A DNA stretch of 64,000 nucleotides from an uncultured Nitrososphaerota archaeon (GCA_963718895.1 CAVRAG010000008.1:1-64000), one strand, 5' to 3'. Shown: positions 46,890 to 63,345, counted from the first letter of the stretch. Made by a program: numbers and translations. Notes: generated by a model from the letters alone, not told the origin.

Positions 46890-46968
46890 CAAAGGGCCAC
46901 ACCTGCCCCGTCTGTATTCCTTGACTGTAAATACCCTCGGACCCTTGCGACCTGCTAGGCGCTGCGCT

Positions 46969-47181
46969 TTGACCAGTCAGATCGAGGAGCGACACAGGCA
47001 GATCCTGACGGCGATCTTCACCGTCAGCCAGCCGCCAGGGCTTGTCGAGAGCAGGCTCCAAACCCTCAAGGGGCTGGTGGACGCTCGCGTGAACTCGGTC
47101 GAAGAGACGGTCTGGGTCGAGTTCGACCCTTCGGTCATCTCCGAGGCCGAAATCAAGCTTGCCTGCTCGCAGGCACGGTAG
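46969..47181 (+). CDS. HMA-like small protein lacking CxxC
   Basis: VESRLQTLKGLVDARVNSVEETVWVEFDPSVIS matches the HMA pattern. Confidence 0.55.
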   Translation: MTSQIEERHRQILTAIFTVSQPPGLVESRLQTLKGLVDARVNSVEETVWVEFDPSVISEAEIKLACSQAR

Positions 47182-47295
47182 CGCCTCCCCACACCCAACC
47201 CGGCCGATGGACGTCTTGCAGGTCGACCAACTCTCTCGGGAGCCCTCTGCGGACGGCGGAAAGCGATTGGTCTTACAAGTAAGACGCATGGGACT

Positions 47296-47832
47296 TCAGA
47301 GCAGCGTCAGCCCAATGGCCTGGTCGCTGATTTCCGCCACGACTTTCTGGCCCGCGTCCTGGAACGCCGAGACGAAGAAGCTCGAGAGATAGAGGGACCA
47401 CTTCCTCCCGAACGGATGCGTGAGCGTGATCGACTTTGGCGAGTTTGAAGATTCGCTGTAGTCGTACAGCGACGTGACGGACGCGTTCTCGCGGATGAAC
47501 GTCAGCACGTTGGGGACGGACTCGTGGCCCCACTTGCCGAGCGCGTACGCCTTGGGGACGCTGTGGCCGGAGGCCGCCCCGGCTGCGATGATGTCCTCGT
47601 CGCTCGTGGCTGCGAGTATCCTCTCGAACGCGCTTATGCTGAGGGAGATCGTCCCGAGCCTCTTTCGGTGTCTTCCCACATCGATGTAATCCGCGAGAAG
47701 CTGGTTCACGAGCGTGTTGACGCTGACCTTCTTCCGCGCCGCTTCTTCTTCGAGCCCCAGGAGGACGGCAGAATCTATTCTGAAGGAACGGTTCTCGGTC
47801 TTTCTCTTCTGAGGAGTGAAGTTCTCCTCCAT
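47296..47832 (-). CDS. Ribbon-helix-helix domain protein
   Basis: RSFRIDSAVLLGLEEEAARKKVSVNTLVNQLL; TATA TTTATATAA just upstream. Confidence 0.75.
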   Translation of the reverse strand: MEENFTPQKRKTENRSFRIDSAVLLGLEEEAARKKVSVNTLVNQLLADYIDVGRHRKRLGTISLSISAFERILAATSDEDIIAAGAASGHSVPKAYALGKWGHESVPNVLTFIRENASVTSLYDYSESSNSPKSITLTHPFGRKWSLYLSSFFVSAFQDAGQKVVAEISDQAIGLTLL

Positions 47833-47975
47833 AACTTTCTTCTCGCTTGCCCTCTTTATATAAGCATGTTTCGCGCAAAAGGGCGTTTTACGGCAATTCC
47901 GGGCCCGCGGAGCCCAATCCAGGCTCGGATGGTAAGCGGAAGCGATTACCCTCCCGCGCCCGACCGCGCCCCGCG

Positions 47976-48230
47976 TTAGACTATCTTCTTGGCCTCGAAG
48001 ATCTCGCAGTTCTCGAACGCGAGCTCCTTCTTTGAGAGAGTGTGGAACAGGAATCCCTTGTAGCTGGTCAGGTATTGCCACGTCTTGTTGAACCCGAGCC
48101 CTCCGGGGTTGTTTATCACGACCACGGGCCTGTCCATCTTCTCCACTATCTTCAGGAACTCAATGACGTCCACGGTGATCTTGGGCCCTAGGACCGCTTT
48201 GGCCTTTGCGTTCTGGTCTTCCCCTTCCAA
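47976..48230 (-). CDS. Hypothetical protein
   Basis: 84-aa ORF with host-like codon usage; TATA-like element upstream. Confidence 0.6.
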   Translation of the reverse strand: MEGEDQNAKAKAVLGPKITVDVIEFLKIVEKMDRPVVVINNPGGLGFNKTWQYLTSYKGFLFHTLSKKELAFENCEIFEAKKIV

Positions 48231-48303
48231 ATCGCCCTCCGCGCAAACCGGAATTCTCTATTAAGCTTTGACCGTCCGCGCTGCGCAAGGACCGCCTTCG
48301 CGC

Positions 48304-48729
48304 TCACGCCTTGATGATGTCGTTCCAGCCCTTGGCGAGCTGCCACGCCTGCTTGACGAACCCGCTCTGGGGCCCCCTCTCCGGTATCGACTGGAGCTTC
48401 AGCTGGTAGACGGCCTGGGTCTTCTTCCTCTTGTCGTTCCAGACGAGGACGTCCCTCTCGACGAACCCCATGTCGAGCAGCTTCCTCAGTAGCTTCACGT
48501 AGAAGTTGTGGTAGCTGTACTTCACCCCGAGCTTCCCGGCCTCGAGGTCCTTGGCGAAGAACCGCATCTCGCGCTTCGTCATCGAGAGGTTTGCGCCCGA
48601 TTTCATCCTGCCGATGAGCGTTTTCGCGGCGTCGATGGTCTCCTTCCTCTCGCCGAAGAGCACGGCGAGGACGTCACCGTTGTTTATCAGCTTCTCATTC
48701 CAGTACAACTTGATGCTCTTGGATGCCAA
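48304..48729 (-). CDS. Hypothetical protein, possible winged helix
   Basis: NFYVKLLRKLLDMGFVER; clean 141-aa ORF. Confidence 0.65.
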   Translation of the reverse strand: MASKSIKLYWNEKLINNGDVLAVLFGERKETIDAAKTLIGRMKSGANLSMTKREMRFFAKDLEAGKLGVKYSYHNFYVKLLRKLLDMGFVERDVLVWNDKRKKTQAVYQLKLQSIPERGPQSGFVKQAWQLAKGWNDIIKA

Positions 48730-48739
48730 GAGTCAGCCT

Positions 48740-49210
48740 TCACTCATCTGGCGTCGGAACTTTCCACTTGGAGAGGTCAACCACGCTTACGCCCAACTTC
48801 GCGGAGTGTTCTATCATGTACTTGTCGCTGGTGAGGATCGCTAGGTCGTGGCGCCTCGCGGTCGCGATATGAAATGAGTCGAAATAGCTCAGGCCCCTCC
48901 TCCCACCGTGACTAAGGTACAACGACATCGCTTCCTCTGCTATCTCGCCGCTCATCGGGTACGGCGTGTGAGGAATCGACTTCATGTCCGCGACAAAGTC
49001 CCTTGCGACGTCGATTGGTGCACCGTCAGCCCTGATGGCGGAGATGGCATCGTCGTACACCTCCGATGACGTTCTCAGCACCAACGCTCCCTTCCCGGAT
49101 TCCCCGATCACCGCGGCCGCTTGGGACTCGCACCGTCCTCCCCTCAGAAAGAAGAAGAACAGGTCCGTGTCGCCGACCAGGACGCGGGCGCGGTCGCTAT
49201 CTTCCGCCAT
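48740..49210 (-). CDS. vapC: VapC/PIN toxin
   Basis: LVGDTD, SYFDSFHIATA, ILTSD; overlaps the AbrB gene. Confidence 0.85.
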   Translation of the reverse strand: MAEDSDRARVLVGDTDLFFFFLRGGRCESQAAAVIGESGKGALVLRTSSEVYDDAISAIRADGAPIDVARDFVADMKSIPHTPYPMSGEIAEEAMSLYLSHGGRRGLSYFDSFHIATARRHDLAILTSDKYMIEHSAKLGVSVVDLSKWKVPTPDE

Positions 49211-49427
49211 TCGAGACCAGCTCCTCAGCCCTCTCTTCCAGCTCCTCCCACTCTGAGCGAATCAGGCCGCGATACTTCCCGCGGAGCTCGTCGACCCCAA
49301 CGAGAGGACGAAGCTCGACGACATCCCCTTTGGTTGTGACCTTGAAGCGTCTCGACTTGAACTTCCGTCTCAGCTCTATCGGGAGAAGTATTCTTCCTTT
49401 CTCATCGGCCTCGACGACGGCGTTCAA
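49197..49427 (-). CDS. AbrB/MazE-type antitoxin
   Basis: DEKGRILLPIELRRK; upstream inverted repeat TCCCAC-N10-GTGGGA at 49430-49451. Confidence 0.85.
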   Translation of the reverse strand: MNAVVEADEKGRILLPIELRRKFKSRRFKVTTKGDVVELRPLVGVDELRGKYRGLIRSEWEELEERAEELVSNGGR

Positions 49428-49488
49428 ATTCCCACCGGTGTACTAGTGGGAGGTCCTTAAGAACCCACCGCCGCTCATCGAGGGGGCC

Positions 49489-50910
49489 ATGATAATCTTG
49501 AGGAAAAATTCTCAACGTTTATCAACCCCGGTGCACTATGTACATTGCTTGGTTTATAGAGGCGTCCGGCGTCTCACCCTGTCCAGCCTCCTCGTCGTTT
49601 GTCTTGTGGTACTGGTGTTCGCGACCCTGCCTGTGGTCCGTGCCCAGTCGGTCGTGGCGACGATCCCGGTAGGGCCTGTGCCCATGGCCGTCGCCTACGA
49701 CCCGGGGAAGGGTGAGGTCTTCGTGGCGAATCAGGGTGTCTTTTCGAGCTTGCAGAATGGCAATGTCTCGGTGATAAACGACGCGACGAACGCGCTCGTG
49801 ACTACGGTCACCGTGGGATTGAACCCCGACGGCATCGCCTACGACTCTGGTAAGGGTGAGATCTTCGTGGCGAACCACGGCACGCTCGAGCGGCGGCTCT
49901 GTCTCGGTGATAAGCGACGCCACGAACACCGTAGTCGCGACCATCTACGTCGGACTCCATCCTTGGGGCGTCGCATACGACCCCGCCGAGGGAGAGGTCT
50001 TCGTCGCGAACTACGGCGTGGGCAGTCCCTCGGGTACGGTCTCAGTGATAAGCGACACCACCAATACTGTCGTCGCGTCGGTCACGGTGGGAGCGGGGCC
50101 GTTTGCACTCGCCTACGATCACGCCACCGGAGAGGTCTTCGCCACGAACCTCGTGGACAACACCGTCTCTGTGATAACGGACGGGTCAATCTCAGGGGAC
50201 ACCGCGAACGCGGTAGAGGTCACCATCCCCGTAGGGACGACTCCCGACGCCGTCACCTACGATTCGGGCAACGGAGACGTCTACGTGGCGAACGAGGGCA
50301 CCGGAACCGGCTCTGTCTCGGTCATAGATGGTCCCAGCGAGACGGTCGTCGCAACCGTGACCGTCGGAGCGTACCCGACCGGCATCGCCTACGACTCGGG
50401 CCAGGGGGAGGTCTTCGTGGCGAACGACGCCTCGCCCACGGGAACGCTCTCGGTGATAGATGACTCCAGCAACACGGTCACGGACACGGTCCCGCTTGGA
50501 GTCAATTGCTACGCTATCGCCTACGACTCGGCCAAGGGCGAGCTCTTCGTGACGAATCAGGTCGTACACGGCAACGCACTTGTAGTCTCCGACACTTCGA
50601 GCACAACGACCACTTCGACCACACTAGCTCCACGAGCACCAGTACTGCCACCTCGACCCTACCTCCTCCCGCGATCCCCGTTTGTCCCAGCACCTTCGGA
50701 GGCGTCCTCATGCCTTCGGGCGCCACGTTCACCGACTCTTACGGCAACACCTGGGTCGCCCCGAGCGGCAGCGATGGCGGAGGCGTCTGGAGCAGCTACT
50801 TCTTTGCAGGACCAGCGACCATCATCCCGCCCCCTATGCTCGCAGGCTGGGCCGGCGTCTACGGTACCTACGGCGCGCAGCAGGGCTGGATAATCACCTT
50901 CTTCTGCTAG
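49489..50910 (+). CDS. YVTN/YncE-type beta-propeller surface protein with a Gly/aromatic C-terminal domain; frameshifted
   Basis: Repeats of P.G(I/V)AYD...GEVFVAN...VSVI.D.TNTVVATI.VG; Thr linker; C-terminal domain in ORF 50506-50910. Confidence 0.85.
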
Positions 50911-51047
50911 GCGGCACCTGCGGTTCCGATGCCGGCACTCGGGGCTGGGTCGTAAGCTTCTACTGCGCCTAGGCTGCGCTCGGCGCTGCGAGTGTACTGA
51001 CGATTTAGGCACAACATTATTATCGGTCATGCCTTCGCACGAAATCC

Positions 51048-51452
51048 GTGTACATCAGGACGAAGGTGGTGAACGGGAACCGGTACGTCTACCTGGTGGA
51101 GGGTCGCAGAGACGCGGGCCGCGTAAGACAGAGGGTCGTCTGTTACATCGGACCGCTCACCAGGGCCGCGACGGGAATCCCTGAGTCCGTGAAGGGCGCT
51201 CTATCGCGGTCGGGCATCGATTGGGACGATGTGAACCGCCAGCTGGCCCTGATACCGCTCACCTTCGACGAGCTCTCCGAAGTGAGGCGTTCCAACTACG
51301 CCAGGTCTCTGGGCGCGAGGCGTACGGGTCGCCCCGCGCAGGGCTCCAGACCGCGTCCCGAGGGCGAGCTCGCCGCCCTCTCCGCTGTCGCCGCGGCAAG
51401 GTTCAGGGAGCTGTTCGAGACCGCGGGCGAAAGGGAGTACAGGATGAGATGA
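51048..51452 (+). CDS. Hypothetical protein with an IS1634-N-terminus-like beta-hairpin motif
   Basis: MYIRTKVVNGNRYVYLVEGRRDAGRVRQRVVCYIG; ATGA overlap with the next gene. Confidence 0.65.
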   Translation: MYIRTKVVNGNRYVYLVEGRRDAGRVRQRVVCYIGPLTRAATGIPESVKGALSRSGIDWDDVNRQLALIPLTFDELSEVRRSNYARSLGARRTGRPAQGSRPRPEGELAALSAVAAARFRELFETAGEREYRMR

Positions 51453-52037
51453 CCTCGAGCAAGGGCAGGTCGAAGACCAGCGCCGGGAAAGCGCCGCGTG
51501 ACCTTGCGGCCGAGCGCGTTCGTCTCGCGTCTGAAGAGGGAGCCCAACGATCTGAAGAGGAAGCTTCTCCTCCTCGGGTACCTCGGCGAGACACTCTCGA
51601 AGGAGGGGGTCTCCCTTTACCTTGTGGGAGGCCAGGCCGTCGAGGCGTACACCGCCGGACAGTTCACGACCGGTGACATCGACATCACGACAACCAAGAA
51701 GGCGGAGACCGAGAGGGCACTCGTGCGGCTGGGGTTCACGATGGAGGGGATGGTCTGGCTGAACGCCGCGCTCGGAGCGGCCGTGCACATCGTCGGCACG
51801 CATCCGACGCGAAGCGAGAGGACCCGCGCCATCGAGGTCGGGCCCTACAGGGTCAACATCGTGGGAGTCGAGGACCTCATCATCGACAGGCTGGAGGCGG
51901 CAAAGTTCTGGAAGAGCGAGCGGGATTCGGAGCAGGCGACGGTCCTCTACCAGGTCTTCAGGGGGGCGATCGACCTCGAGTACCTCAGAAAGAGGGCGGC
52001 GGAAGAGGGGGTCCAGGACATCCTTCCGGACGGCTGA
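51449..52037 (+). CDS. Nucleotidyltransferase-like protein (DUF6036-like)
   Basis: LVGGQAVEAYT...TGDIDI; EDLIIDRL; IDLEYLRKRA. Confidence 0.75.
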
Positions 52038-52100
52038 CGGATCCAGTACCCTGGCCTGCATCCGGGGCTGGATTGTTGCTCTCCACTCCGCCTCGAACGA

Positions 52101-52330
52101 TTAAGAGCGAGTCGTCCTCGGGGTGGTCAGGGTCCTCACGCGGCGGATGTCCTCTTCGATGCGGGCGAATTGCTTGTCATCGGTGAGCACCCCTGCGAAG
52201 GTCGAGAGCTGCGGTTTTCCGGATATCAGCCGGTCGATCACGTCGCTGAAACTCTCCCCTTTGGCCTTCGCTCAGGAGCTTTCTGTAGACATCCTCCCGA
52301 TGGCCAGATTCTTTACTGCCACACACAGAG
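52101..52330 (-). CDS. Orphan VapB-type antitoxin; frameshifted
   Basis: Reconstructed VKNLAI.EDVYRKL..KAKGESFSDVIDRLI...LSTFAGVL; no adjacent PIN gene. Confidence 0.65.
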
Positions 52331-52487
52331 ATGTATGCGTACCTGCATAAAAAAAGCCACCCACAAAACCGGTACACACCGATGATATTGATGCCGGAGA
52401 CACCATGCCTTCGCAGGCTCGAAACCGGGTTGCAGTGCCGATTTCCGGGCTCAACAACCGCCGCGGCGGACTCCATTCGTCCAAGGG

Positions 52488-52950
52488 TCAGCTCGGGAGA
52501 GGGAGAAGCTCGCAGATCTCCTTGAGGTTCCTCGTGTACCAGCGCAGGTTGTCCGCGGTCCTGCTGTTGAGGAAGGCCTCCTGGGTGATCGTCGAGGCGT
52601 ACTCCGAGACGAGGGTGTACTCGAAGACGGTCTTGACCTTCGTCCTCGGGCCCATCGCCCTCGAGGAAGACGAGCTGGTCGAAGGACTTGAAGAGCCCGC
52701 CGGGCGACTGCCTCGTGGCGAAGCAGACCTCGGGGTCGGCCCTGGTGACCTCCACGTAGACCTCTACCCTGACCTTACCCAGCCTCGCGAGGACCTCGAC
52801 CTTCGAGCCAAGCGCGAGCTTCCCCGGCGGTATGGCCTCGGAGGTGATGACATCAGGGTAGAGCTTCGGTAGGTAGGAGGGGTCGGTGAGGACGGCCCAG
52901 ACCGTGCTCGCGGGCGACTCGATCTCGATGATGTCTTCGACCCTCGTCAT
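52488..52950 (-). CDS. SRPBCC/START-family protein (3 of 3); frameshifted
   Basis: IEIESPASTVWAVLTDPSYLPKLYP...NLKEICEL. Confidence 0.8.
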
Positions 52951-53021
52951 GGTTGTTCACCCCCCGGCCCGGCTATTAAATGCGGGGGTTTACTACGGCG
53001 GCACTCGGGGCCGGACCCCTG

Positions 53022-53492
53022 CTACTTCTTCACGGGCTCGGGGTTGCGGAGCTCCGAGAGCTCCTTCAGGTTCTTCATGTACATCTCCTCGTTCAGGGAC
53101 GCGGCCTGGGTCAGCTGGAAGAGGTCGAAGCCCGGCCCGAAGTAGGCGACGGAGACCTTGAACTCGAATACCGCCTTCACAACGGTGCCCTCGGGGATCC
53201 CCTCGAGCTCTATGACCTCCGAGAAAGACTCGAACGCGCCGCCCCTCCGTCCCACGACCACGAACCTCTTGTTGGGGACCAGCTCGGCGACCCTCGTCCT
53301 AAACTCAATCAGCCGCTTGCCCACCCTCCCGCTGAGCGAGCGGGCCTGTCCGACCACTGCGCGGCCCGGCGGGTCGACCGTGATGTTGAGCAGGTCGGGG
53401 TATAGCTTGGGGATGAAGTTGGCATCGGTAAGGACGTCCCAGACGGCCTCGGGCCCGGCGTCCACGAGGAAGCTCGCCTGGACTCTGGCCAT
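53022..53492 (-). CDS. SRPBCC/START-family protein (2 of 3)
   Basis: VDAGPEAVWDVLTDANFIPKLYP...NLKELSE. Confidence 0.85.
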   Translation of the reverse strand: MARVQASFLVDAGPEAVWDVLTDANFIPKLYPDLLNITVDPPGRAVVGQARSLSGRVGKRLIEFRTRVAELVPNKRFVVVGRRGGAFESFSEVIELEGIPEGTVVKAVFEFKVSVAYFGPGFDLFQLTQAASLNEEMYMKNLKELSELRNPEPVKK

Positions 53493-53555
53493 GGGCTTGG
53501 CGGAGCGTCGCCCCTTATTAAGCCGACGGGAGGTCGGTCCCATCGCTTCGCTGGG

Positions 53556-54026
53556 TCAGCGCTTTCTCGCGGGCATGGGGCGCAGCTCAGAAATCTCCTT
53601 CAGCGTGTTGGAGTAAGACTCCAGGTTGTCCCTGACGAGGTTCTGGACGAGGGCCAGGCTGAGCGCCTTCCCGATGTAGCCGCGGGACAGCTCGTATTCG
53701 AAGACCGTCCTCGCCTCCGTCCCGCCCGCCCTGGCCGCGAGGGTCGTGCGCTGCTTGAACGACTCGAAGAGCCCTCCGGGACGGTGGACCACCGTCAGCC
53801 TCGCCTTCGGCGACATCTCGGAGACCTCGAGCAAGATCTCGACCTTCCTCCGGCCGGCCTTGCCCGTGAGGTGGTACCTCTGCCCGACGAACGAGCGCCC
53901 GGGCGGGTCGATCCTGACCAGGATGGCGTCCCTGAAGAGCTTGACTATGTACGACATGTCCGTCAGCACGTCCCAGACGGCATCCACCGAGGCCTCGATC
54001 TGGACCACTCTCTGGATCTTCGCCAT
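53556..54026 (-). CDS. SRPBCC/START-family protein (1 of 3)
   Basis: IEASVDAVWDVLTD...TLKEISE. Confidence 0.85.
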   Translation of the reverse strand: MAKIQRVVQIEASVDAVWDVLTDMSYIVKLFRDAILVRIDPPGRSFVGQRYHLTGKAGRRKVEILLEVSEMSPKARLTVVHRPGGLFESFKQRTTLAARAGGTEARTVFEYELSRGYIGKALSLALVQNLVRDNLESYSNTLKEISELRPMPARKR

Positions 54027-54075
54027 GCTCGCTTCAACCGATCCGGCGCTATATATAGCTCGGGCGAACTCCGCG

Positions 54076-54102
54076 ATGAATCGAGCTTGATATCAAGCTG
54101 GA
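54076..54102. repeat. Intergenic palindromic site, copy 1
   Basis: ATGAATCGAGCTTGATATCAAGCTGGA; perfect 16-bp core at 54084-54099. Confidence 0.85.
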
Positions 54103-54206
54103 GGCCGAGTCAGAGGCGACCACCGATTCGCCAGGCCTACAGGCGCGAATGCCCTGAGCAACGTGACGTCCTTGAAATCGAAGCGAGGGGGCCTTGACGC
54201 GGCCCG

Positions 54207-54653
54207 TCATCTGCTCTTGGATCCCGCCATGGGGTCGACCGTCCTAATGATCTGGCCCCTCCATTCCAATTCACTGACTCTCAATAACTCCGAGTCATGG
54301 GTGTAGACCTCAAGGACTCTATTTGCCAAGAAGCTCGCGAGAATGAGCGAATCCCTTCCGCCTAGCGCGTATCGCTCCGCTAGGTTCATCGCGAGCACCG
54401 TGGTCGACTTTGTCTGGTTGAAGAAGACCATGAACGGCAATCTGAGGAGTATCTCAAGCCTCCTTCTCGCCTCCTGTCTCGTCCAGCTCTGGCCGTATAC
54501 GAGAACGTGGTAGGCCTCGTGCATGACGGTCGGGTTTACAGCACACACGAACTCCGGAGAGAGTGACCGAAGGAAACTCCCGACCGTCTCATGCTCGGGA
54601 TACTTTGAATCGAGCATGTAGCAAACTATGTTTGAATCCAGACCGATCGGCAT
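54207..54653 (-). CDS. vapC: VapC/PIN toxin
   Basis: GLDSNI, VMHEAY, GGRDSLILAS, YTHD. Confidence 0.88.
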   Translation of the reverse strand: MPIGLDSNIVCYMLDSKYPEHETVGSFLRSLSPEFVCAVNPTVMHEAYHVLVYGQSWTRQEARRRLEILLRLPFMVFFNQTKSTTVLAMNLAERYALGGRDSLILASFLANRVLEVYTHDSELLRVSELEWRGQIIRTVDPMAGSKSR

Positions 54654-54895
54654 CAGGCCTTCTCCTTCCAGATTGACTTCATCCTCGCAGGTCCTGGGTT
54701 CGTGGGTTTCCCGGTCCTTCTTGGTTCTGATTCGAGCACCTTCAGGAATTCGGCCACCCTGTCTTCCTTCCTGCCCGGAACCAGCACGACGCCCGCCTCG
54801 GTCTTCTTAATCACGATGTGCACGCCGAGGCCCTCCCGGAACTCAGGAGGTATCAGGACCCTGCCTTTCGTGTCGATTTTGGCTGTCGTCTCCAT
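54653..54895 (-). CDS. AbrB/MazE-type antitoxin
   Basis: KIDTKGRVLIPPEFRE; upstream inverted repeat TCCCACT-N7-AGTGGGA at 54897-54917. Confidence 0.88.
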   Translation of the reverse strand: METTAKIDTKGRVLIPPEFREGLGVHIVIKKTEAGVVLVPGRKEDRVAEFLKVLESEPRRTGKPTNPGPARMKSIWKEKA

Positions 54896-54976
54896 GTCCC
54901 ACTAGATATCAGTGGGACTATAAAAAGGGCCGCTGGCCGCGGCCTGATGCGTGACTGGGCGGAGACCGAGGCTTAG

Positions 54977-54994
54977 CGAGCTTGATATCAAGCC
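54977..54994. repeat. Intergenic palindromic site, copy 2
   Basis: CGAGCTTGATATCAAGCC. Confidence 0.8.
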
Positions 54995-55018
54995 TGATGA
55001 CTATCGGGGCACCAGCGG

Positions 55019-55612
55019 ATGCCCTTTATCAGCGACCACGACCACCGTCGACCGTTGACGACTTACGTCGTTGCACCCCCGACGTCCGGCGATTACGTCT
55101 TCTGGCTTTTGTCCCTCGTCCTGTTCGCCGCGCTGGTCCTGGTGATCGTCGTCGCCCTCGCGCCGAGGATGCGGAGCAGCAGGGCGTACAGGAACAAGGT
55201 CGTAGCGGTACTCGCAGTCGTCATCGTGCTCGTGGCTTCGGGCTTTTTCGACCTCGACCCCTTCGCCGGGAACACCGTCGCCGTCTCGCAGGAGGCGTTG
55301 ACCATGAGCGCCCCCGCCCTCTTCTCCGTCACGCTGAACGCCGACCAGGTCAAGGAGGCCTTCGTGGTGAACCTGAGCACCTGGAACGTCGGGATATCCG
55401 GTGCCTCCGGCGGCGACAAAGGGTCCGAACTCAACATCGGAGCCTATCCGCTCTCGAACGGGGCGAGCGCGGACGTCATCTCGGATGAGCAGCTGAACCT
55501 CGTGGTCGTGGCGAGCAGCGGCCAGTACTTCATCCTCGGACCGAGCGACTTCCAGGCCTTTGTCGCCGACTTTTCAGCCCACGTCGCTCCTGTGACCAAC
55601 GCCACCCCCTAG
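55019..55612 (+). CDS. Two-TM membrane protein with a PH-like C-terminal domain
   Basis: Two hydrophobic helices, then G...G.Y...NG...FILGP.D...F. Confidence 0.6.
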   Translation: MPFISDHDHRRPLTTYVVAPPTSGDYVFWLLSLVLFAALVLVIVVALAPRMRSSRAYRNKVVAVLAVVIVLVASGFFDLDPFAGNTVAVSQEALTMSAPALFSVTLNADQVKEAFVVNLSTWNVGISGASGGDKGSELNIGAYPLSNGASADVISDEQLNLVVVASSGQYFILGPSDFQAFVADFSAHVAPVTNATP

Positions 55613-55963
55613 GCGCCAAACACCCCTGCCCGATCGACCGGCATCTGGTCGTCTCCTTCAGGAGCGACCGGAATCAAGAAGGGCGCAGCCAGCGGCCGCA
55701 AGCACCACTCGGCGGGGGTTGGGATCACGGTTCTGCGCGTTTGTGGAACCGCACGGCCGCGTCGTGGGGCCTGCCTTCCACCGGGGCGATATCAATCGGG
55801 ACGCTCGGATCGACCGTCCCTAGGATGGCCTCCCTAATCCCTGAATCATGGGGTGCCGGGTCCGCCTCGAAGCCGTCCAGGAACGCGAGGAGTCCTCATG
55901 GATTGTGTTCGCAACCGTCATATATCGACCCCGGCTCGATGCGACGAGAGAGGAGAGACGAGC

Positions 55964-56733
55964 GCTGCCCTGGCCCAGGATCCTGACGGCCGACGAGAAG
56001 CAGACAATCAGCCCGCATCAGGGCAGGATGGAGCAGGTGGTCGTCAGCAGCTTCCCGCTCTCTCGAAGCGGGGTGGGCCTGGTACGAGAAGGACCAGGGC
56101 GTGGTCGCGTGGGCCTTCCGCAACGCCGACTCCAGCCGGCACAGCATGGTCCTGCTGCGAAACTCCTACTACTTCGGGGACGCGTACTGGTCGATCTACT
56201 CCTCGAACCCCGGGTTCCGAACCTCTTTCCTCGGCGGGGGCTCGCCGCCGCGCCCGCTCGCGGCTACGAACGTGCCCCAGAGCGCCGCCCCGCTCGGGCT
56301 CGTCCAGTTCGACGGTTTCCAGCAGGCCATCGTCTGCTTCGTGATCACCCTCTCACCGGGACAGGCCTGGGCGATGCTCGAGCGGGGCTTCGACCAGATG
56401 GGCCCACCCGCCGACGTAGCTGTCTACGAAGCGACGCCGCTGGCCGGCGGAGAGTACTGCATAGCGAGCGACCTCCGGGCGGTCAGCGAATGGGACGACC
56501 AGACGCGGACCCGGCTCGGCGCGTACACGCCGAACCCCTCGACCTTCAACACGTGGCTCTTCCAGGCGGAGAACGGCGCCCCTTATCGGAAGGTATTCGA
56601 CGGCGACGCGGTGGCCAAGGGGAGGTGCTCGCAGGCACCGGCAGTCAAGCCGATGTCCCAGCCGGCCAGCGAGACGCGGGACATGTTCCCTCCCGTGTTC
56701 CCGGACGTCCTCTCGCCTCCGCTCAACCCCTGA
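55964..56733 (+). CDS. Hypothetical protein; frameshifted near 56060
   Basis: ORF 56101-56733 plus an upstream frame; aromatic-rich. Confidence 0.55.
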
Positions 56734-56769
56734 GAACACTTGCGGTATCGGCTGGCCCAGGTCACGACC

Positions 56770-56795
56770 ATATCGAGCTCGATATCGAACTTGAG
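56770..56795. repeat. Intergenic palindromic site, copy 3
   Basis: ATATCGAGCTCGATATCGAACTTGAG. Confidence 0.8.
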
Positions 56796-56904
56796 CAGAC
56801 CTCATCCTAGGAGCGACTCGAGCCGGATCCGCCTCAGCCCCGGCACGTTTCCGAGCTGCGGCCCCCGGGGTCGCACGTGTAACTGGGCGCGGGAGCGAGG
56901 CTTG

Positions 56905-56927
56905 TCGAGCTTGATTTCACGCTGGAG
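56905..56927. repeat. Intergenic palindromic site, copy 4 (degenerate)
   Basis: TCGAGCTTGATTTCACGCTGGAG. Confidence 0.65.
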
Positions 56928-56965
56928 AGAGCGTCAGTCCGCCCGGGGGAGGGCACGAGACACAC

Positions 56966-57185
56966 CTAGCTGTACGCGATTATCCAGCCCAGGTGCCCGC
57001 CGAAGGTCCCGTACACCCCGTCCCAGCCCTGCTCCATGAGGATTGGGACCGAGGTGATCGGACCCACGAAAAAGTAGGTCACTATGCCCCCGCCCGCCAC
57101 GGTCCACGTGTTCCCGAACGAGTCCGCGAAGGTCAGCCCCGGCGGCACAAGGACGCCCCCCCGTCGCGTCGGCGCCGGGCATCAT
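56966..57185 (-). CDS. Small stand-alone homologue of the YVTN protein's C-terminal domain
   Basis: GGVLVPPGLTFADSFGNTW...YFFVGP...GWDGVYGTFGGHLGWII. Confidence 0.65.
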
Positions 57186-57260
57186 AACCAACGACCGGGA
57201 GCTGCGCTCCCTTGACATCCCGACGTTCTGGTGACCGACCCCATCCGGAGGACTGCTTCC

Positions 57261-57767
57261 TCAGGGTGGCGGCGTCTCTGGGTTCTTTTCATTTGCGGCC
57301 CTGCCTCTCCCTCCGGATCGGTCGGGCGCACCGATTATCGCCCCTATCCTCTCCAGATCGACGTGGCGGATCCCAGGCGCCTTGGCGAAGTGGTGGTCGT
57401 CCGAGACGAACGTCTCCAGCCCCTTGGCGAGGGCCGATGCACAGTGAAGCGCGTCCCTCGGGCGCAGGTCCGTCGTCTCCATCAGCCCCTCTGCCCTGGC
57501 GGTGACTGCCAGGGTCGCTTCGAGGAACCTGAGGCCGGGGAACCGGAGGAGCTTCTTTTCCGCCGCGACCCCGTCCTCCCTCCCTATGGCCCTGCTGACC
57601 GCCCAGACCACCTCGTCCCAGGTCATGACCGAGGTGTACGCCACCATACGTCCTTCCTCTATCTCGTCGAGGACCCTTCTAGCAGCCTTCGACCTTCCGC
57701 CGGTCGCGGTTTCTCCAAGGAGAGGGAGGACGAAGACGTTGGAATCAACGTAGACCGGTTCGTTCAA
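57261..57767 (-). CDS. vapC: VapC/PIN toxin
   Basis: YVDSNVF, TWDEV, RPRDALHCASA, VSDD. Confidence 0.9.
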   Translation of the reverse strand: MNEPVYVDSNVFVLPLLGETATGGRSKAARRVLDEIEEGRMVAYTSVMTWDEVVWAVSRAIGREDGVAAEKKLLRFPGLRFLEATLAVTARAEGLMETTDLRPRDALHCASALAKGLETFVSDDHHFAKAPGIRHVDLERIGAIIGAPDRSGGRGRAANEKNPETPPP

Positions 57768-58005
57768 GCATCTCTTCCTCCAGGATACTCTCGACGTCGA
57801 CCCTGCGCTTCGGCTTCTCGCCCATGGTCTCGATGAAGTAGTCCACGTAGCTTCCTGGCGCAGGAGACGGGCGCTTCAGGACTATCTCGTCCCCCCGGAG
57901 CTCAACGATCACCTCGGTCCCCTCGACGAGCCCTGCCCTGTCCCTCAGCTCCTTCGGGATCACCACCTGGCCTTTGGGTCCAATCACACGGGTCAACCGC
58001 GGCAT
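57745..58005 (-). CDS. AbrB/MazE-type antitoxin
   Basis: IGPKGQVVIPKELRDRAGLVEGTEV. Confidence 0.9.
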   Translation of the reverse strand: MPRLTRVIGPKGQVVIPKELRDRAGLVEGTEVIVELRGDEIVLKRPSPAPGSYVDYFIETMGEKPKRRVDVESILEEEMLERTGLR

Positions 58006-58240
58006 AGCTTTCATGCAAGTACAACTACAGCTTATAGTTAAGTGCCACCTAACCGTGCTTTCCATCGCGGGCAGCGATGCGACACCTTTCGGACGCGGCG
58101 GCGGTTCCCATGGGGGAGGGGAGGACTGTCCCAACCAACGGTCGTCGGACTGCCTCCCTCGGCCTCCACCGATCCATCGAACGCGGGCAGCGTCTAGGCG
58201 CGCGTCCCTGCAAATCATGCAAAGATTACAGTTTACGCTC

Positions 58241-58387
58241 AGTTCCCCTGCAGGGGAACATCGCAAGTGGCGCCCTCTAAATGTATAGTGTATCCTGCAG
58301 GGACATAAACCAGCTCGTGGGAGCAAAGGATGGTGATGGCGTCGGACGATAAAAAATCGCAATGCCGTGTGTCCCTTAAGGGGTACA
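58241..58387. repeat. Cluster of three related palindromes in non-coding DNA
   Basis: GTTCCCCTGCAGGGGAAC (perfect, 58242-58259), GTGTATCCTGCAGGGACATA (58288-58307), TGTGTCCCTTAAGGGGTACA (58368-58387). Confidence 0.6.
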
Positions 58388-58442
58388 GATTCGGGTGGTT
58401 CCATGTCCGACCCCCGACACACTATGTTTTGCCTGAGTCAGA

Positions 58443-58733
58443 TCATAAGCCTATGGAAGGTTCGTAGATGGATGCCATTTTCCGGAGTCGGCGTATGCGG
58501 GGCGAGGAAGACTTCAACTTTCCATCCGTTACTCTCGGGTCAATTCGTTGGACTGCCAGGAGTCCTGCCTTACGTTCCCTCGCTGCAGCTCCGCCCTCCT
58601 TTCGCCTGACCTCCGCTCTGAGTGCTGCTTTCGTCACTTCCGTTGCAGAGATATGCAGTTCCATGAGTTTGTAAAACAGAGCCTCGTCGATCTTGATGGT
58701 CAGTACTTTCTTGGGATGCTGAGCAGACTCCAT
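58443..58733 (-). CDS. Orphan CcdA/RHH-like antitoxin, possibly degenerate
   Basis: VLTIKIDEALFYKLMELHISATEVTKAALRAEVRR; inverted repeat TGTGGGAC-AA-GTCCCACA at 58733-58750. Confidence 0.55.
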   Translation of the reverse strand: MESAQHPKKVLTIKIDEALFYKLMELHISATEVTKAALRAEVRRKEGGAAARERKAGLLAVQRIDPRVTDGKLKSSSPRIRRLRKMASIYEPSIGL

Positions 58734-58898
58734 GTGGGACAAGTCCCACACTCCATTTAAGCGCCACGTACACGCTGAGCGTGGTCTTCGGCACTTCTAG
58801 ACCCGCTAGACCATGCCCCCCACGGCCTCAACTAGGCGACTTCCGGGACCGAATACCCCGATTTGGGCTCCTTTTAGCAGGACCTGATCTTTGCCGGT

Positions 58899-59241
58899 CT
58901 AGGCCAGTTCATCCGACCGGGACGCGCTGAGACGCCTTGCTGCAACCTTCAGGAGCAGTTCGTCGTCGGTGACGAGCAGGTGGCCGCCCTCGAGCGCGGC
59001 GACGAGGTAGGAGGCGTCGTAGAACGTCAGGCCCTCTCTGCAGGCGCTCCCAAGGACAGCGGGTAGTGAAGACGCTCTCGCTCCCGACATGGACGGATAG
59101 GACCGTCTCGACATACGCCTGGCGACTTGCCGCGCCCCGGGGCTCGTAGTCCGCGAGGTCCGGCGTGCAGCCTCCGATCAGCCTCCTGATTCTGCCCTGG
59201 TGAAAGAGGTTCAGGATGGCCGATCAGTGGGAGAGACTCAC
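58899..59241 (-). pseudogene. VapC/PIN toxin, disrupted (internal stop and frameshift)
   Basis: C-terminal GLTFYDASYLVAA...LVTDD; GTGA overlap with the antitoxin; early TGA. Confidence 0.7.
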
Positions 59242-59468
59242 CTCGAGTCCCTGTCCTCTCTTATCGCACGGACCCAGTCCTTCTTCGAGACCTTCCGGAT
59301 TATGGTGCCCACGGTGTCGGCTCGTTTGAGCGACCGCTCCTGCTCCCTCTCACGGACCGCGTCCTCGATTGCCTTCCTGATGACGTCCGCCGGCACGATG
59401 CCGAGACCTTTCATCTTGCGCGCGAGCTCTTCCGGGACCTTGGCTGACACTGTAACGCTCTTGCCCAT
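59238..59468 (-). CDS. RHH/CcdA-like VapB antitoxin
   Basis: VTVSAKVPEELARKM...VIRKAIEDAVR...WVRAIREDRDSR. Confidence 0.82.
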   Translation of the reverse strand: MGKSVTVSAKVPEELARKMKGLGIVPADVIRKAIEDAVREREQERSLKRADTVGTIIRKVSKKDWVRAIREDRDSR

Positions 59469-59520
59469 CGCTACCGTAGGGCAGTAACTCGCTGTTGATT
59501 TAACCATCCATGTGCAATTA

Positions 59521-59547
59521 TCCAGCTTGATATCGAACTTGATTCAT
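59521..59547. repeat. Intergenic palindromic site, copy 5 (inverted 24/27 match to copy 1)
   Basis: TCCAGCTTGATATCGAACTTGATTCAT. Confidence 0.85.
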
Positions 59548-59566
59548 GCCGCTTGAGCCAGAAACT

Positions 59567-60756
59567 CTAGGATGGTTTCGCCCTCCCGAAGAAGTAGTAG
59601 AGCAGCGCTATGCCGAGGACGTAGAACCCGCAGGCGATGAACCAGGGGACCTCCAGGAGCCCGACGGAGAGCAGGTAGCCGCCGGCGAGGACGCTGACGC
59701 TGTTCGGGAGGCGGAAGATGATGTTGGTGAGGCCGCTCACGAGGCCGCGCTGCTCCTGGGGGAAGAGGCCCATGACGAACGAGTCCGTGATCGGGCCCGG
59801 ACATGTTCATCAGGGCGGTCCTCACGATGTAGCACCCCGCGGCGAGGTTCACGTTGGTGATGAACGCCATTGCGAGCATGAAGAAGGTCGAGGACCCGGT
59901 GGTGAGGACTATCGCCCTGACCTGGCCGAACCTCCTGGCCAGGGCCGGGCTCGCCAGCGCCGAGAACCCGATGAAGATGTTCGAGACCGCGAGGACCGGC
60001 CCGCTGTAGTAGTCGCCGACCCCGAACCGCAGCGAGAGCCAGGTCGCGAATATGGGTATGATGAAGCCCGCGCCGAGCCCGATGCTGCCGGAGAATATCG
60101 CGATCTTCGCCAGCGCGCGCTTGTTCCTGAGGCCCGCCCACCTCCGGGGACCCTCGCGCGGGTCCCGGTACTTCCTCAGGATCGCCGCCGTGGCCACGGG
60201 GGTGATGAAGCTCGCGAGGGCGAATATGGCGAGGAAGGTGCGGTGGACCGTGTAGCTGTCCAGCGAGAGGGCGGTCTCAACGGCGGGCAGGAAGACCGGG
60301 ATCGAGGAAGCCCACCCCCGAGCCCAGGTTGCTGACCACGAAGGAGAGGGAGAACGCCTTGGGCCTGCTCAGCTCCGTCGTCTGGTCGGCGATCAGGGCG
60401 TTCCAGGTCGTGGTCGAGGCCCCCTCGGACATCCCGCCTATCAGGGCCGCGAAGAGCAGGAGCGAGAAGTTGGAGGTGACGGCGAAGACCAGGAAGCTGC
60501 AGGACCCCGCGAACGCCCCCGCGACCAGGATGAGCCGCCGGCCGTACACGTCGGACGCTATCCCTAACGGTATCGCGGACACTATTGCGGCCGCGCCCTC
60601 GACCCCGATCAGGAGCCCGATCTGGGCGGCCGTGAAGCCCACCTGGAGGAACCAGGCGCTGATGGCGACGAGGATGAACCCGAACGCGACGAAGTTGGGT
60701 ATGGCCGAGTAGATCAGGAGCGAGACCCTCAGCGGCACCCCAGACTCGTCCGTCAA
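59567..60756 (-). CDS. MFS transporter; frameshifted
   Basis: Motif A GIASDVYGRR; second loop LARRFGQVR; about 12 TM segments over three frames. Confidence 0.85.
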
Positions 60757-60894
60757 TCCCGGTCCAGCCCACCCGCAATCGCTTATCCGTGTTGCGGGCA
60801 GGTTTCTTTGCGCTCGCGACGCCCTTCACCGGGCCGTCCGGACAGCGGTCGCGGCGCGAAGCTGAATTCTGGGAGAACCGCGACCGAGCCATCC

Positions 60895-60920
60895 TTCAAG
60901 CTTGATATCGAGCTCGATTA
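60895..60920. repeat. Intergenic palindromic site, copy 6
   Basis: TTCAAGCTTGATATCGAGCTCGATTA. Confidence 0.85.
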
Positions 60921-60968
60921 AGACCGAGGACTGATCACACGCTCGGAAACGCATCCTCTCGACGCCAG

Positions 60969-61381
60969 CTAGCTCAGGAAGAAGATGGGACTCCTGAACG
61001 GCTTCCTTCGCGACTCATCGATCAGCTCCTTCTCGCGGTTCGCGAAGAGGGCTCCTGACCTTATCGCGTACGCTACGGCGAAGGTGTAACAGTCGGCCAA
61101 TGATATGGACCTCTCGCACTTGATCTCCGAGGCCGCGAGGTGTATCGCGGGGTCGTCCTCGACGACGATGTATCCCGAGGCGATCATCGCGTCGATCTTG
61201 GCCCGCGCCGCTTCGTGTCCGACCTTCCTGCAGAGGATGTACGCGGTCTCGGCGATGTTCACCATGCTCACGTGGGGCAGGATGTTCTTCGCCCGCACCT
61301 TGGCGAGCAGCTCGTCGCCTTTGGGAGTGCCCTCGAGCATCTCGATCAGGACGCTCGAGTCGAAGGCCAGTTCTCCCTCAG
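60969..61381 (-). CDS. vapC: VapC/PIN toxin
   Basis: LAFDSSVLIE, VNIAETAY, ISLADCY. Confidence 0.85.
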
Positions 61382-61671
61382 GTGTACCTTCGCTCGAGCT
61401 CGTCCTCTCCTCGCCTGTCTTCGGACCGACCCTCCCGCAGCGCGCTTCGGATCTCTGCCGAGGAACGTCCGGTCGGTTTCACGGCCTCCATCAGAAGACG
61501 CTCATTCCTCCTGGACTTGGCCAGCAGGTACTCTATGACCTCCTCGTAATCGACCCTTCTCCCTCTCTTTGACTGCAACTCGCCGGCTACCTTCAGCAGT
61601 TCGCGACGCGTTCGGGCAGAGATCGTGATGGTTGTGCTATCCATTGTCTCCATAGCCACAATAGTCGTCAT
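61378..61671 (-). CDS. VapB-type antitoxin
   Basis: TTITISARTRRELLKVAGELQ...VDYEEVIEYL; overlaps the PIN start. Confidence 0.75.
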   Translation of the reverse strand: MTTIVAMETMDSTTITISARTRRELLKVAGELQSKRGRRVDYEEVIEYLLAKSRRNERLLMEAVKPTGRSSAEIRSALREGRSEDRRGEDELERRYT

Positions 61672-61777
61672 GGATATTTAAGGCCTGTCCCGAGCGACTC
61701 CTCGCAGTTCAGCGGACAGGGATGCGATCTCTCGGTCTCGACGTCGTTGTTATTAGTCTCGGCTTCCGACTCACATC

Positions 61778-62167
61778 GTGCTCCAGATCGACTGCTCAGA
61801 GCTGTCGCCCGACGAGAAGCTCGCGCTGGCCTCTGAGATATCTGACGCCCTCGAGGGGAGGGCCCTGGCGCTCGTGAAGCTCGACGCCATCGTCTTCGAC
61901 CAGCTTTCAGACGAGAAGGTCGGAGTCGACACACTGCAGCCGATCGTCAGCGACTTCGTATCTCGGAGGAAAGACTCGCAGTACTACGCAGTGGAGGTGA
62001 AAGGGGAGACCGTGATGGTACATTCGGCCGACCCCATCGCGGCAGCGAGGAGGAAGACCGAGTACACCCTGCCGCCGAACCTGAGGCAGTGCCCCTACTG
62101 CTCCTTCATCACCCAGTACGAGGAGGAGTACACGGTCCACATGAGGGCCCACCTCTTCGGGGTCTGA
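61778..62167 (+). CDS. Hypothetical protein with C-terminal C2H2 zinc finger
   Basis: CPYC-X12-HMRAH. Confidence 0.7.
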   Translation: MLQIDCSELSPDEKLALASEISDALEGRALALVKLDAIVFDQLSDEKVGVDTLQPIVSDFVSRRKDSQYYAVEVKGETVMVHSADPIAAARRKTEYTLPPNLRQCPYCSFITQYEEEYTVHMRAHLFGV

Positions 62168-62175
62168 AGCGCGGC

Positions 62176-63000
62176 TCAGGCGCCCATGGCGCGGACGTTC
62201 TGGCCGGCCGTCAGCTCGACCAGCTTGAACCTGAGCTGCGGCACTTTGGCAGCGTAGGACCGTTCGCCGACGAGACCGACCATGCCGAAGATGCCCTCGA
62301 TGAGGCCGGCGCACAGCCCGTATGTCGTCCAGCTATCCTTGACGCCCTCGCTGCTGGCGAAGATCGGGTCCCTGACGACGACGCCGACGGTGCCCCGCTC
62401 CATCTGGGAGAGGTCGAAGCTGGCCAGCCCCCACCCGCTGGTCCGCAGCTCGTCTTCGGCCGTGAGCAGCATCGCCTGCTGGGACGTCCCGGGGCTGGAC
62501 CTTCTGAGCGACCTCGTCAGGGCGAGCCCGGACTGCCTGCCCATCGCGAAGAGGACGAGGTTCCCCGTCTCCTCCGGGTACTTCGAGAACGAGCTCTCCA
62601 CCTGGACCAGGTTCTCTGTGGAGGTGATCACGAGCCTCGACCCGTCGAGGGCGACCACCGGGAAGAGGAACCGGTTGTATCGCGGGATCGCCATCTCGGT
62701 TCCCTGGGCCGATTCGACGACCAAGAGTCCCCTGAGGAGGCCGAGCAGCGTCTCGATGGAGACGTCGGAGGACTCCAGGCCGACGTTGGCAGAGATGATG
62801 AAGAGCTTGGTCTCCGGCATGCTCTGGGACTCCAGGCCGAAGAGCTCCACCCTGTGGTCCCGGAAGAGGACCAGCATCATCGCCAGGGCCTCGACGTGGT
62901 CCTTGCCCACCACCACCAGTTCGGTGACCTTGCGCTCGCTGGGCTGTTTCATCCCGAGGATGCGCGGGAGGTACTCCGCGGGCTTTGGCGGGAGCGTCAT
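62176..63000 (-). CDS. ACT-like + V4R domain protein
   Basis: VVGKDHVEALA (ACT-like); FAMGRQSG and SGWG...GLIEGIF (V4R-like). Confidence 0.7.
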   Translation of the reverse strand: MTLPPKPAEYLPRILGMKQPSERKVTELVVVGKDHVEALAMMLVLFRDHRVELFGLESQSMPETKLFIISANVGLESSDVSIETLLGLLRGLLVVESAQGTEMAIPRYNRFLFPVVALDGSRLVITSTENLVQVESSFSKYPEETGNLVLFAMGRQSGLALTRSLRRSSPGTSQQAMLLTAEDELRTSGWGLASFDLSQMERGTVGVVVRDPIFASSEGVKDSWTTYGLCAGLIEGIFGMVGLVGERSYAAKVPQLRFKLVELTAGQNVRAMGA

Positions 63001-63203: not shown

Positions 63204-63345
63204 GGGTCCCCCATCGTGGCTGATGACCGCCTGCTCCCCGTCGAGGGCCGATCCGCTTTCACCATACCAACGTCGAACCCGTCGTCAGATGGGCGTCGAT
63301 CTCCGCAAAGGGATATAATTGGTTCACCGGAGGGCGTTGATGCAT

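Follow-up and report, generated by a model that had tools for sequence, protein, structure and literature searches.

Why should six copies of one palindrome stand between unrelated genes at a single place on an archaeal chromosome? The question is raised by an island at 54–61 kb of the window, i.e. the whole 64,000-nucleotide stretch analysed here (C8:1-64000), in the genome of an uncultured soil Nitrososphaerota archaeon (G000; 3,127,762 bases in 11 contigs, 80.5% complete). The answer that we favour, tentatively and with slightly less than even confidence, is that the palindromes are an operator-type recognition sequence for one putative DNA-binding protein, and that this sequence was multiplied together with inserted gene modules. 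A regulator would bind the sites, and the copies would owe their spread to recombination at the site or next to it, either of the Campbell type or through short homology.

The window was scanned on both strands, allowing up to three mismatches, with the palindrome of an original prediction that had recognised six intergenic copies. Eleven strand-matches were obtained, corresponding to six sites which start at 54080, 54975, 56772, 56904, 59520 and 60895 and have 0, 2, 0, 3, 1/0 and 2/0 mismatches to the pattern, respectively; the core starts given originally equal these starts plus 4. None of 100 dinucleotide-preserving shuffles of the window gave any match, and the pattern scan of the 64 kb returned no seventh copy, as had been judged by eye. 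All six sites lie between open reading frames (ORFs), which are backed by Pfam or by conservation in relatives. Their 22-base consensus is TC-VAGCTY-GATATC-RAGCTB-GA. The 24/27 inverted match previously reported between sites 1 and 5 was recomputed and holds, and sites 2 and 4 share about 24 further flank bases on one side (the left flank of site 2). Extending the same scan to the whole genome added a single match, with three mismatches, at C8:512822, while a search with the 14-base core at up to one mismatch yielded eight matches, five of them within the island (reversed-pattern control, 0). Good copies are found only in the island and show no even spread through intergenic DNA; they span 6.8 kb of a 3.13-Mb genome. 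The dispersal typical of repetitive extragenic palindromic (REP) sequences and bacterial interspersed mosaic elements (BIME) is not seen, which speaks against the REP-like element that had been offered as an alternative.

The anatomy of the palindrome was studied in a table of 32 sites from the genus and 20 from other lineages. Near-invariant positions read TC.AGCT.GATATC.AGCT.GA, the central GATATC being almost invariant; most copies are flanked by an A on the left and a T on the right, and in low-G+C lineages these flanks extend to TA and TA. Conserved arms of 8–10 bases surround the GATATC, for a total of 22–26 bases, and the site can be described as a pair of 14-base palindromes, TATCRAGCTYGATA, which overlap and repeat with a period of 12 bases. 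In a few copies a third unit of this period is present (G007 16666/16678, G002 9836/9848). As a separate observation, a marine metagenome contig of 42% G+C (L137), which has no island genes, carries at about 1090–1300 a long tandem array of a 12-base unit, GATATCRAGCTY. The symmetric pair 3/20 is mismatched in 17 of the 32 genus sites and pair 8/15 in nine of them, with no compensation. Since the arms vary independently, the site appears to be read as duplex DNA, half-site by half-site, with no selection for a hairpin. Its sequence is strongly conserved across genomes of 31–63% G+C, and it is kept where the intergenic DNA beside orthologous sites is not alignable; it is therefore under selection. 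The six sites would be copies of one two-fold symmetric, duplex-read recognition sequence of a predicted sequence-specific binder. The region was also searched for tRNA genes and Rfam matches and contained none. A literature search that did not extend to the papers' supplements found no description of this palindrome in archaea, part of it yielding matches to cloning vectors only.

At up to two mismatches, 15 of 41 relatives, close and more distant, have matches, including 12 of the 22 congeners; each has one to five sites, which in most cases share a contig and lie no more than a few kb apart. In those 12 congeners the palindrome clusters at a syntenic locus beside pgk-gap, and the site-less congeners are largely those without an orthologous pgk. 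Six genomes of the genus (G008, G009, G014, G017, G018 and G020) have only a 30%-identical pgk or none, and are site-less. At up to one mismatch, 14 of the 401 genomes of the order match, namely G000, 10 of the 22 congeners, one of six genomes of genus g2 and two of ten of family f11; no match at this threshold was found in the 55 genomes of the sister genus g20 or in the 112 genomes of each of two large ammonia-oxidiser-sized families. Exactly one site, even at three mismatches, is present in G188 (g2) and in G050, G115 and G034 (f11). Other Nitrososphaerales lineages with the palindrome have G+C contents of 31–43% and 60%, and carry one to four copies each. Five low-G+C genomes (G401–G405) have 2–4 sites each: G401–G404 hold 2–3 better copies within 5–13 kb on one contig, and G405 has two sites on separate contigs. 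An exact scan of one genome per species gave 29 stretches, which by record title comprise 16 from Nitrososphaeria or other archaea, one of these being Candidatus Gagatemarchaeum, and 13 single bacterial matches. From metagenomes 55 stretches were recovered, about 21 with island-type genes; in nine of the 55 the site lies within 100 bases of an end, and three of those nine (L119, L139, L148) are among the island-type stretches. Viral contigs gave four matches (48–51% G+C) and no island genes.

The palindrome is older than the island and more widespread, and outside the genus it is a promoter-proximal element. In all five pgk-type loci (G050, G034 and G115 of f11, metagenome contig L121 and GTDB contig L053) the site lies 51–72 bases before the pgk start, and in three of the five (G050, L053, L121) a TATATA stands 20–21 bases from it. 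A similar arrangement is found before the SRPBCC genes of the island in three of five genomes (G000, G001, G011), where the order is site, 23–25 bases, TATATA, about 25 bases, ATG; the site-TATATA distance deviates in G007 (8 bases) and G002b (33 bases). In the layout common to the two promoter sets, TATATA is separated from the site by 20–25 bases, and about 25 more lead to the start codon. In the window, site 1 (54080..54103, ATCGAGCTTGATATCAAGCTGGAG) lies 54 bases upstream of the SRPBCC start (54026) and 105 bases past the 3' end of a PIN gene, and the TATATA of the SRPBCC promoter is 23 bases from the site edge. The original prediction held that a fixed distance to TATA boxes would speak against a recombination system; a near-fixed distance is seen at the SRPBCC and pgk promoters but not at the toxin-antitoxin (TA) modules, where it ranges from about 50 to 130 bases. 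By our reading of a gene map of 13 loci, about 20 of the approximately 30 genus sites have a gene start directed away from them at no more than 150 bases.

The metabolic context differs between lineages. Sites of G401–G405 precede genes for class-II FBP aldolase, glucose-dehydrogenase-like alcohol dehydrogenases, an MR_MLE dehydratase and folD, as well as a small operon, and a KDPG aldolase gene adjoins one site of the low-G+C genomes. The neighbours in G000 are TA pairs, SRPBCC and MFS genes, as against pgk-gap, class-II aldolase, glucose-dehydrogenase-like and MR_MLE genes elsewhere. The older, conserved placement would be promoter-proximal: the site is found about 20–26 bases upstream of the B recognition element (BRE)/TATA of pgk-gap in another Nitrososphaerales family, precedes class-II aldolase, glucose-dehydrogenase-like and dehydratase genes in further low-G+C lineages, and is placed likewise before the SRPBCC operon of G000. 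Such a position fits an operator or an upstream activating site of a carbohydrate-metabolism neighbourhood. It is because of the duplex reading, the deep conservation, the promoter geometry and the metabolic neighbours, taken together, that an operator-type binding site is favoured here.

The nearest precedent is the Thermococcales glycolytic motif (TGM; TATCAC-N5-GTGATA), a palindromic sugar-regulon operator bound by TrmBL1/Tgr which, in the portions of the report consulted, activates from upstream of BRE/TATA (PMC4158304). Like the TGM as characterised there, the palindrome has TATCA/TGATA-type half-sites and stands before sugar-metabolism and gluconeogenic genes, upstream of TATA, in its pgk, aldolase and dehydrogenase contexts. 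Unlike the TGM, its half-sites are spaced by 2 and not 5 bases and its unit is doubled in tandem; there are one to six copies at one locus per genome and no dispersed regulon, the neighbours in G000 being those listed above; and no TrmB-type binder is tied to it.

How, then, did an operator come to stand at six places in one island? In this genus the site-bearing pgk-gap locus, which lies in the terminus zone (see below), may have become a gene-insertion hotspot, and site copies, sometimes with 13–40 bases of one flank, would have been duplicated along with the modules (TA pairs, MFS and others). Duplication together with inserted modules would account for the copies now being found at module joints. 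Both flanks of the island are syntenic in congeners and the stretch between them varies. In the 13-locus gene-family map the sites stand between modules: gene pairs within a module stay together, and neighbours across sites change. Modules in the map include three kinds of TA pair, the SRPBCC block, an NHL-repeat gene, a KaiC-like pair, an MFS gene, a permease, an aminotransferase and others. For the MFS module the difference amounts to a clean indel, with site 5, MFS and site 6 in G000 against a single site in G010, and homology extending up to the site on both sides. In G001 the site forms part of exact direct repeats of 35 bases on either side of the TA pair at 57261-58008 (G001 sites 12507 and 13364), and another TA pair has sites on both sides in G015. 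The pairs at 54207-54895 and 57261-58008 have swapped order between G000 and G001. "Empty" site pairs, 110–385 bases apart, also occur (window sites 3 and 4; G002 9848/10255).

The modules of the window are as follows. Sites 1 and 2 enclose exactly one AbrB-VapC-type pair, as originally described, on the minus strand (54207..54895), consisting of a PIN toxin gene (54207-54653) and an AbrB/MazE-like antitoxin gene (54653-54895); the same pair is present in G001 and G011, at other joints. A distinct palindrome, CCCACTAGATATCAGTGGG, at 54897-54915, follows the TATA box of the AbrB-like gene, precedes its start codon and is probably the antitoxin's own operator. The AbrB-like gene starts (54895) 80 bases downstream of site 2 (54975..54998), which also precedes a plus-strand ORF (55019-55612). 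This ORF belongs to the module between sites 2 and 3 (55019..56810, plus strand), which comprises two ORFs without a clear family and has no match in the congener loci compared. Site 3 (56772..56795) is at the 3' end of the plus-strand ORF 55848-56810, with no gene start facing it. Site 4 (56904..56926), separated from site 3 by 110 bases, is degenerate: its centre reads GATTTC, and there are three mismatches. It adjoins the 3' end of an NHL-gene fragment (56966-57148). Sites 4 and 5 bracket a minus-strand module (56934..59507) with the NHL fragment, a PIN gene (57261-57767) and its MazE/AbrB partner (57745-58008), a CcdA-like ORF (58443-58751) and small ORFs. Within this module the non-coding segment 58229-58390 is 77–91% identical across congeners and better conserved than the genes next to it; three CCCTGCAGGG-like palindromes are present in it, and it has no Rfam match. 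Site 5 (59520..59543) forms the left edge of the MFS indel, 2 bases beyond the 3' end of the MFS gene; it is also upstream of a small ORF (59238-59507/59470), with a TTAAAT at a distance of 17 bases. Again as first described, the only gene enclosed by sites 5 and 6 is the MFS transporter gene (59544-60892, minus strand), which is split over two frames. A contig from run X2 is one base shorter at 59792, so that the frameshift could stem from an error of assembly rather than mark a pseudogene. Site 6 (60895..60918), the right edge of the indel, has the 5' end of the MFS gene on one side and the 3' end of a PIN gene (60969-61340) on the other.

Several observations weigh against an operator. Unrelated modules of seemingly horizontal origin each bear an almost perfect copy, for which a regulator by itself does not account, and the site-to-TATA distance at the TA modules is not fixed. 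A promoter is not expected between convergent 3' ends, yet at least seven of the approximately 30 genus sites are found there (window sites 3 and 4, G021 9860, G003 1752, G013 4617, G015 11678 and G010 11506). In G000 the Entner-Doudoroff-type sugar genes are on other contigs and have no sites in the whole-genome scan, and the pgk promoter itself is without one. Congeneric or confamilial genomes that carry pgk and no palindrome also exist, as in genus g20, and the pgk upstream regions of 25 confamilial loci showed no copy of the palindrome and no other shared palindrome. Nor was any candidate regulator shown to follow the sites: a C2H2 ORF is present in 35 of the 55 g20 genomes, which lack the palindrome, a winged helix-turn-helix (HTH) protein from G007 and a TrmB C-domain protein are not tied to the sites, and a LAGLIDADG-HTH protein of the low-G+C lineages was not found in G000, G007, G188, G050 or G034. 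Since a regulator alone fails for the unrelated modules, the convergent ends and the empty pairs, the copies must, if the site is an operator, have spread by recombination at or beside it.

Homodimeric LAGLIDADG proteins have 22-base pseudo-palindromic targets, and WhiA-like LAGLIDADG-HTH proteins are regulators. The palindrome likewise measures 22 bases, and all four low-G+C Nitrososphaeria genomes examined have one site upstream of a small operon (L219:9591-10662, L058:6125-7225, L044:3071-4150, L218:6047-7563). In this operon a conserved ORF of 110 residues precedes one for a single-motif LAGLIDADG + HTH_23 protein, whose LAGLIDADG motif is without the acidic residue and which might bind the site in the low-G+C lineages. 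That this protein was not found in the five genomes just listed sets the present case apart, G000 having only an unlinked ORF of patchy occurrence (C4:315903-317618; 572 residues) with two intact LAGVIDGEG motifs and similar halves. This two-motif ORF was found in six of 12 site-bearing and two of 10 site-less congeners and in four of 55 g20 genomes, giving no clean link. Another ORF, F19 (48304-48729), lies 59 bases downstream of a site in G010 and G188; its Atlas matches are Nitrososphaerota hypotheticals only, and its AlphaFold model (mean predicted local distance difference test score, pLDDT, 49) is unusable.

Among the alternatives, the one that survives best, which we consider possible though on the doubtful side, takes the palindromes for dedicated site-specific recombination sites of a chromosomal cassette system: GATATC would be the crossover region, a recombinase encoded elsewhere would insert, excise and reshuffle modules, and TA genes would have a stabilising part. 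Arms of 8–10 bases about a near-invariant six-base centre fit a tyrosine-recombinase core site. The clean MFS indel, the TA pair between identical sites in G001 and the one flanked on both sides in G015, the swapped TA-pair order, the empty site pairs and the sites at convergent 3' ends are all consistent with it, and the genomes hold many tyrosine integrases which might act in trans. Sites are also enriched at non-conserved joints: 12 of 24 joints with a site are unique to one genome, compared with 34 of 142 without (crude Fisher p = 0.013, from genomes that are kin and not independent and from rough ORF calls). The proposal that rearrangement breakpoints coincide with sites is borne out to this extent only, for many rearrangement joints have no site, several showing none or only a decayed trace. 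The inversion of the SRPBCC block in G001 was considered as a site-mediated event and ruled out from the gene map: the block sits between inverted NHL-gene paralogs, so that homologous recombination suffices and no site-specific event is needed. Reads X1–X4 (seven runs found, at most 14% of sampled words) gave contigs of 150–320 bases which span no joints and have no bearing on excision or inversion.

A recombinase that could serve such a system was looked for in several ways. No serine recombinase was found in G000, and no XerA above the cut-off in this 80.5%-complete assembly (NF040815, best score 101 bits against a cut-off of 220). The best XerA-scoring integrase (L059 type; C8:1338882-1340213) abuts a tRNA-Leu gene, like an ordinary element integrase. 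G000 has at least nine tyrosine-integrase-like ORFs which share a conserved C-terminal extension, among them C8:627714-629024, C7:481979-483352 and C11:6574-7881; none of its integrase-like ORFs is near the sites, and no integrase family is distributed as the sites are. The L061/L110 family is multi-copy at 35–55% identity and the L062 type occurs in few genomes, the distribution of both being unlike that of the sites. BLASTX with six G000 integrase types, a test of homology to those six queries and not a profile search, gave no match in 113 loci totalling 765 kb (108 fetched for a site, some of them chance bacterial matches, plus five flank extensions without a site), and Pfam scans of the window ORFs from 45888 to 63000 revealed no integrase domain. 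Genomes of other lineages, moreover, have one or a few copies close to the promoters of core metabolic genes, and the full symmetry of the site gives no directionality. The cassette shuffling put forward in the original prediction is thus partly supported, as regards the single locus, its syntenic conservation, the variable modules, the MFS indel and the direct repeats; it falters on the recombinase, on promoter placement in other lineages, on the joints without sites and on an inversion attributable to NHL paralogs.

Known cassette systems offer the same mixture of likeness and difference. In common with Xer/dif, the pdif modules of Acinetobacter plasmids and the arrays of integrative mobile elements exploiting Xer (IMEX), here taken as comparison from parts of two reports (PMC8371274; PMC11840125), the island has short inverted arms, a six-base centre and modules, often TA, between repeated sites; like dif it is near the terminus, and its recombinase would be encoded elsewhere. 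Archaeal Xer/dif has arms of about 11 bases and a six-base spacer, 28 bases in all; the site here is compatible with this layout but shorter, at 22–26 bases, and perfectly symmetric. The modules of pdif type are bounded by pairs of oppositely oriented Xer sites resembling the dif of the host, whereas a symmetric site has no orientation and no host dif is known apart from it. The dif core given in the sections of PMC11840125 consulted, TAA-N6-8-TTA, is absent from the consensus. Unlike dif, G000 has six copies, a single one being found only in G188, G050, G115 and G034; and unlike dif and pdif, no XerA was found, the site is fully symmetric and chromosomal rather than plasmid-borne, and recombination was not observed. 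Membership of the dif family fails on the core, the copy number and XerA. Integron arrays resemble the island in their co-oriented small modules, many of them TA pairs, with a repeated palindromic element between them at one locus. They differ in that no intI is present in the flanks (SRPBCC, pgk-gap) and no integrase match in the 113 loci; and unlike attC, the palindrome is conserved in sequence over 22–26 bases and has no structural covariation, and the modules have their own promoters.

The position of the island on the chromosome was assessed by cumulative GC skew. In contig C8 of G000 the skew reaches a minimum at about 80 kb and then rises over the remaining 1.5 Mb, the island being at 54–61 kb. 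The congener G007 is a single contig of 2,252,123 bases with orc1/cdc6 at 1.642 Mb; its skew has a sharp peak at 1.66 Mb and a flat, broad minimum at 0.4–0.7 Mb. The peak beside orc1/cdc6 places the origin at the skew maximum; over 1.44–1.84 Mb of G007:C1 the sign is the reverse of the usual bacterial one. In the parts consulted of Cortez et al. (2010, PMC2958812), origins are described as sharp and termini as broad in skew. The G007 island (533–540 kb) falls within the broad minimum, and 17–24 kb separate it from the antipode of orc1/cdc6. Both genomes thus place the locus in the zone where replication terminates.

This location allows two further interpretations. The palindrome could be the crossover site of a hitherto undescribed terminus recombination system in XerA-less Thaumarchaeota, normally present once per chromosome, at which TA-bearing, site-flanked modules accumulate and can be excised or reshuffled, an archaeal counterpart of dif modules and IMEX arrays; we regard this as unlikely. 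Quite improbable is a terminus-linked maintenance site, normally single-copy and multiplied here by insertions, which would serve XerA-less Thaumarchaeota as a dif analogue or act as a matS/Ter-like organiser. The single copy in each of four genomes of two families, the conservation of the sequence across a wide range of G+C and the terminal location in G007 and G000 argue for such a maintenance site, and the passages seen of Cortez et al. (PMC2958812) state that Thaumarchaea are without xerA and may use another recombinase. That the palindrome was not found in g20 and the two large families shows that it is not a universal maintenance site; the dif core is missing, at least as defined in the text consulted of PMC11840125; a palindromic spacer would not orient dimer resolution; and the placement rests on two genomes, with no recombinase or binder known for the site. 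A hairpin in RNA or single-stranded DNA (a terminator, REP-like or attC-like structure) or an inert relic of a local repeat is very improbable, for although the palindrome is perfect, with a potential 9-base stem, and several copies follow gene 3' ends, the arms show no covariation, it is sequence and not structure that is conserved across G+C contents, there is neither dispersal in the genome nor an Rfam match, and a neutral relic would hardly be kept where its neighbouring DNA is not alignable.

The flanks of the island are conserved. On the left, the minus-strand SRPBCC block (52177..54026) consists of three SRPBCC (Polyketide_cyc2) paralogs, with site 1 in its promoter. The right flank up to pgk (60969..63000) contains the PIN gene 60969-61340 with its partner ORF (61378-61671), the C2H2-finger ORF (61778-62167) and an ORF at 62176-63000 which belongs to a paralogous family and has no Pfam domain. 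The pgk gene starts at 63319, and beyond it on the right are gap, an aldo-keto reductase gene and genes for a PA14 protein and SHMT. The description of the region as rich in TA genes is confirmed by three PIN genes in 54207-61340, a fourth at 48740-49210, and two AbrB/MazE-like genes.

If the palindromes are operators, they would represent a conserved cis-element for central carbohydrate genes of uncultured soil Nitrososphaerales, implying a yet-unnamed regulator, and the island would be a clear example of a regulatory site copied along with gene modules. If they are instead recombination sites, they would be the first candidate terminus recombination site for XerA-less Thaumarchaeota, and the island the first archaeal chromosomal array of the dif-module type.

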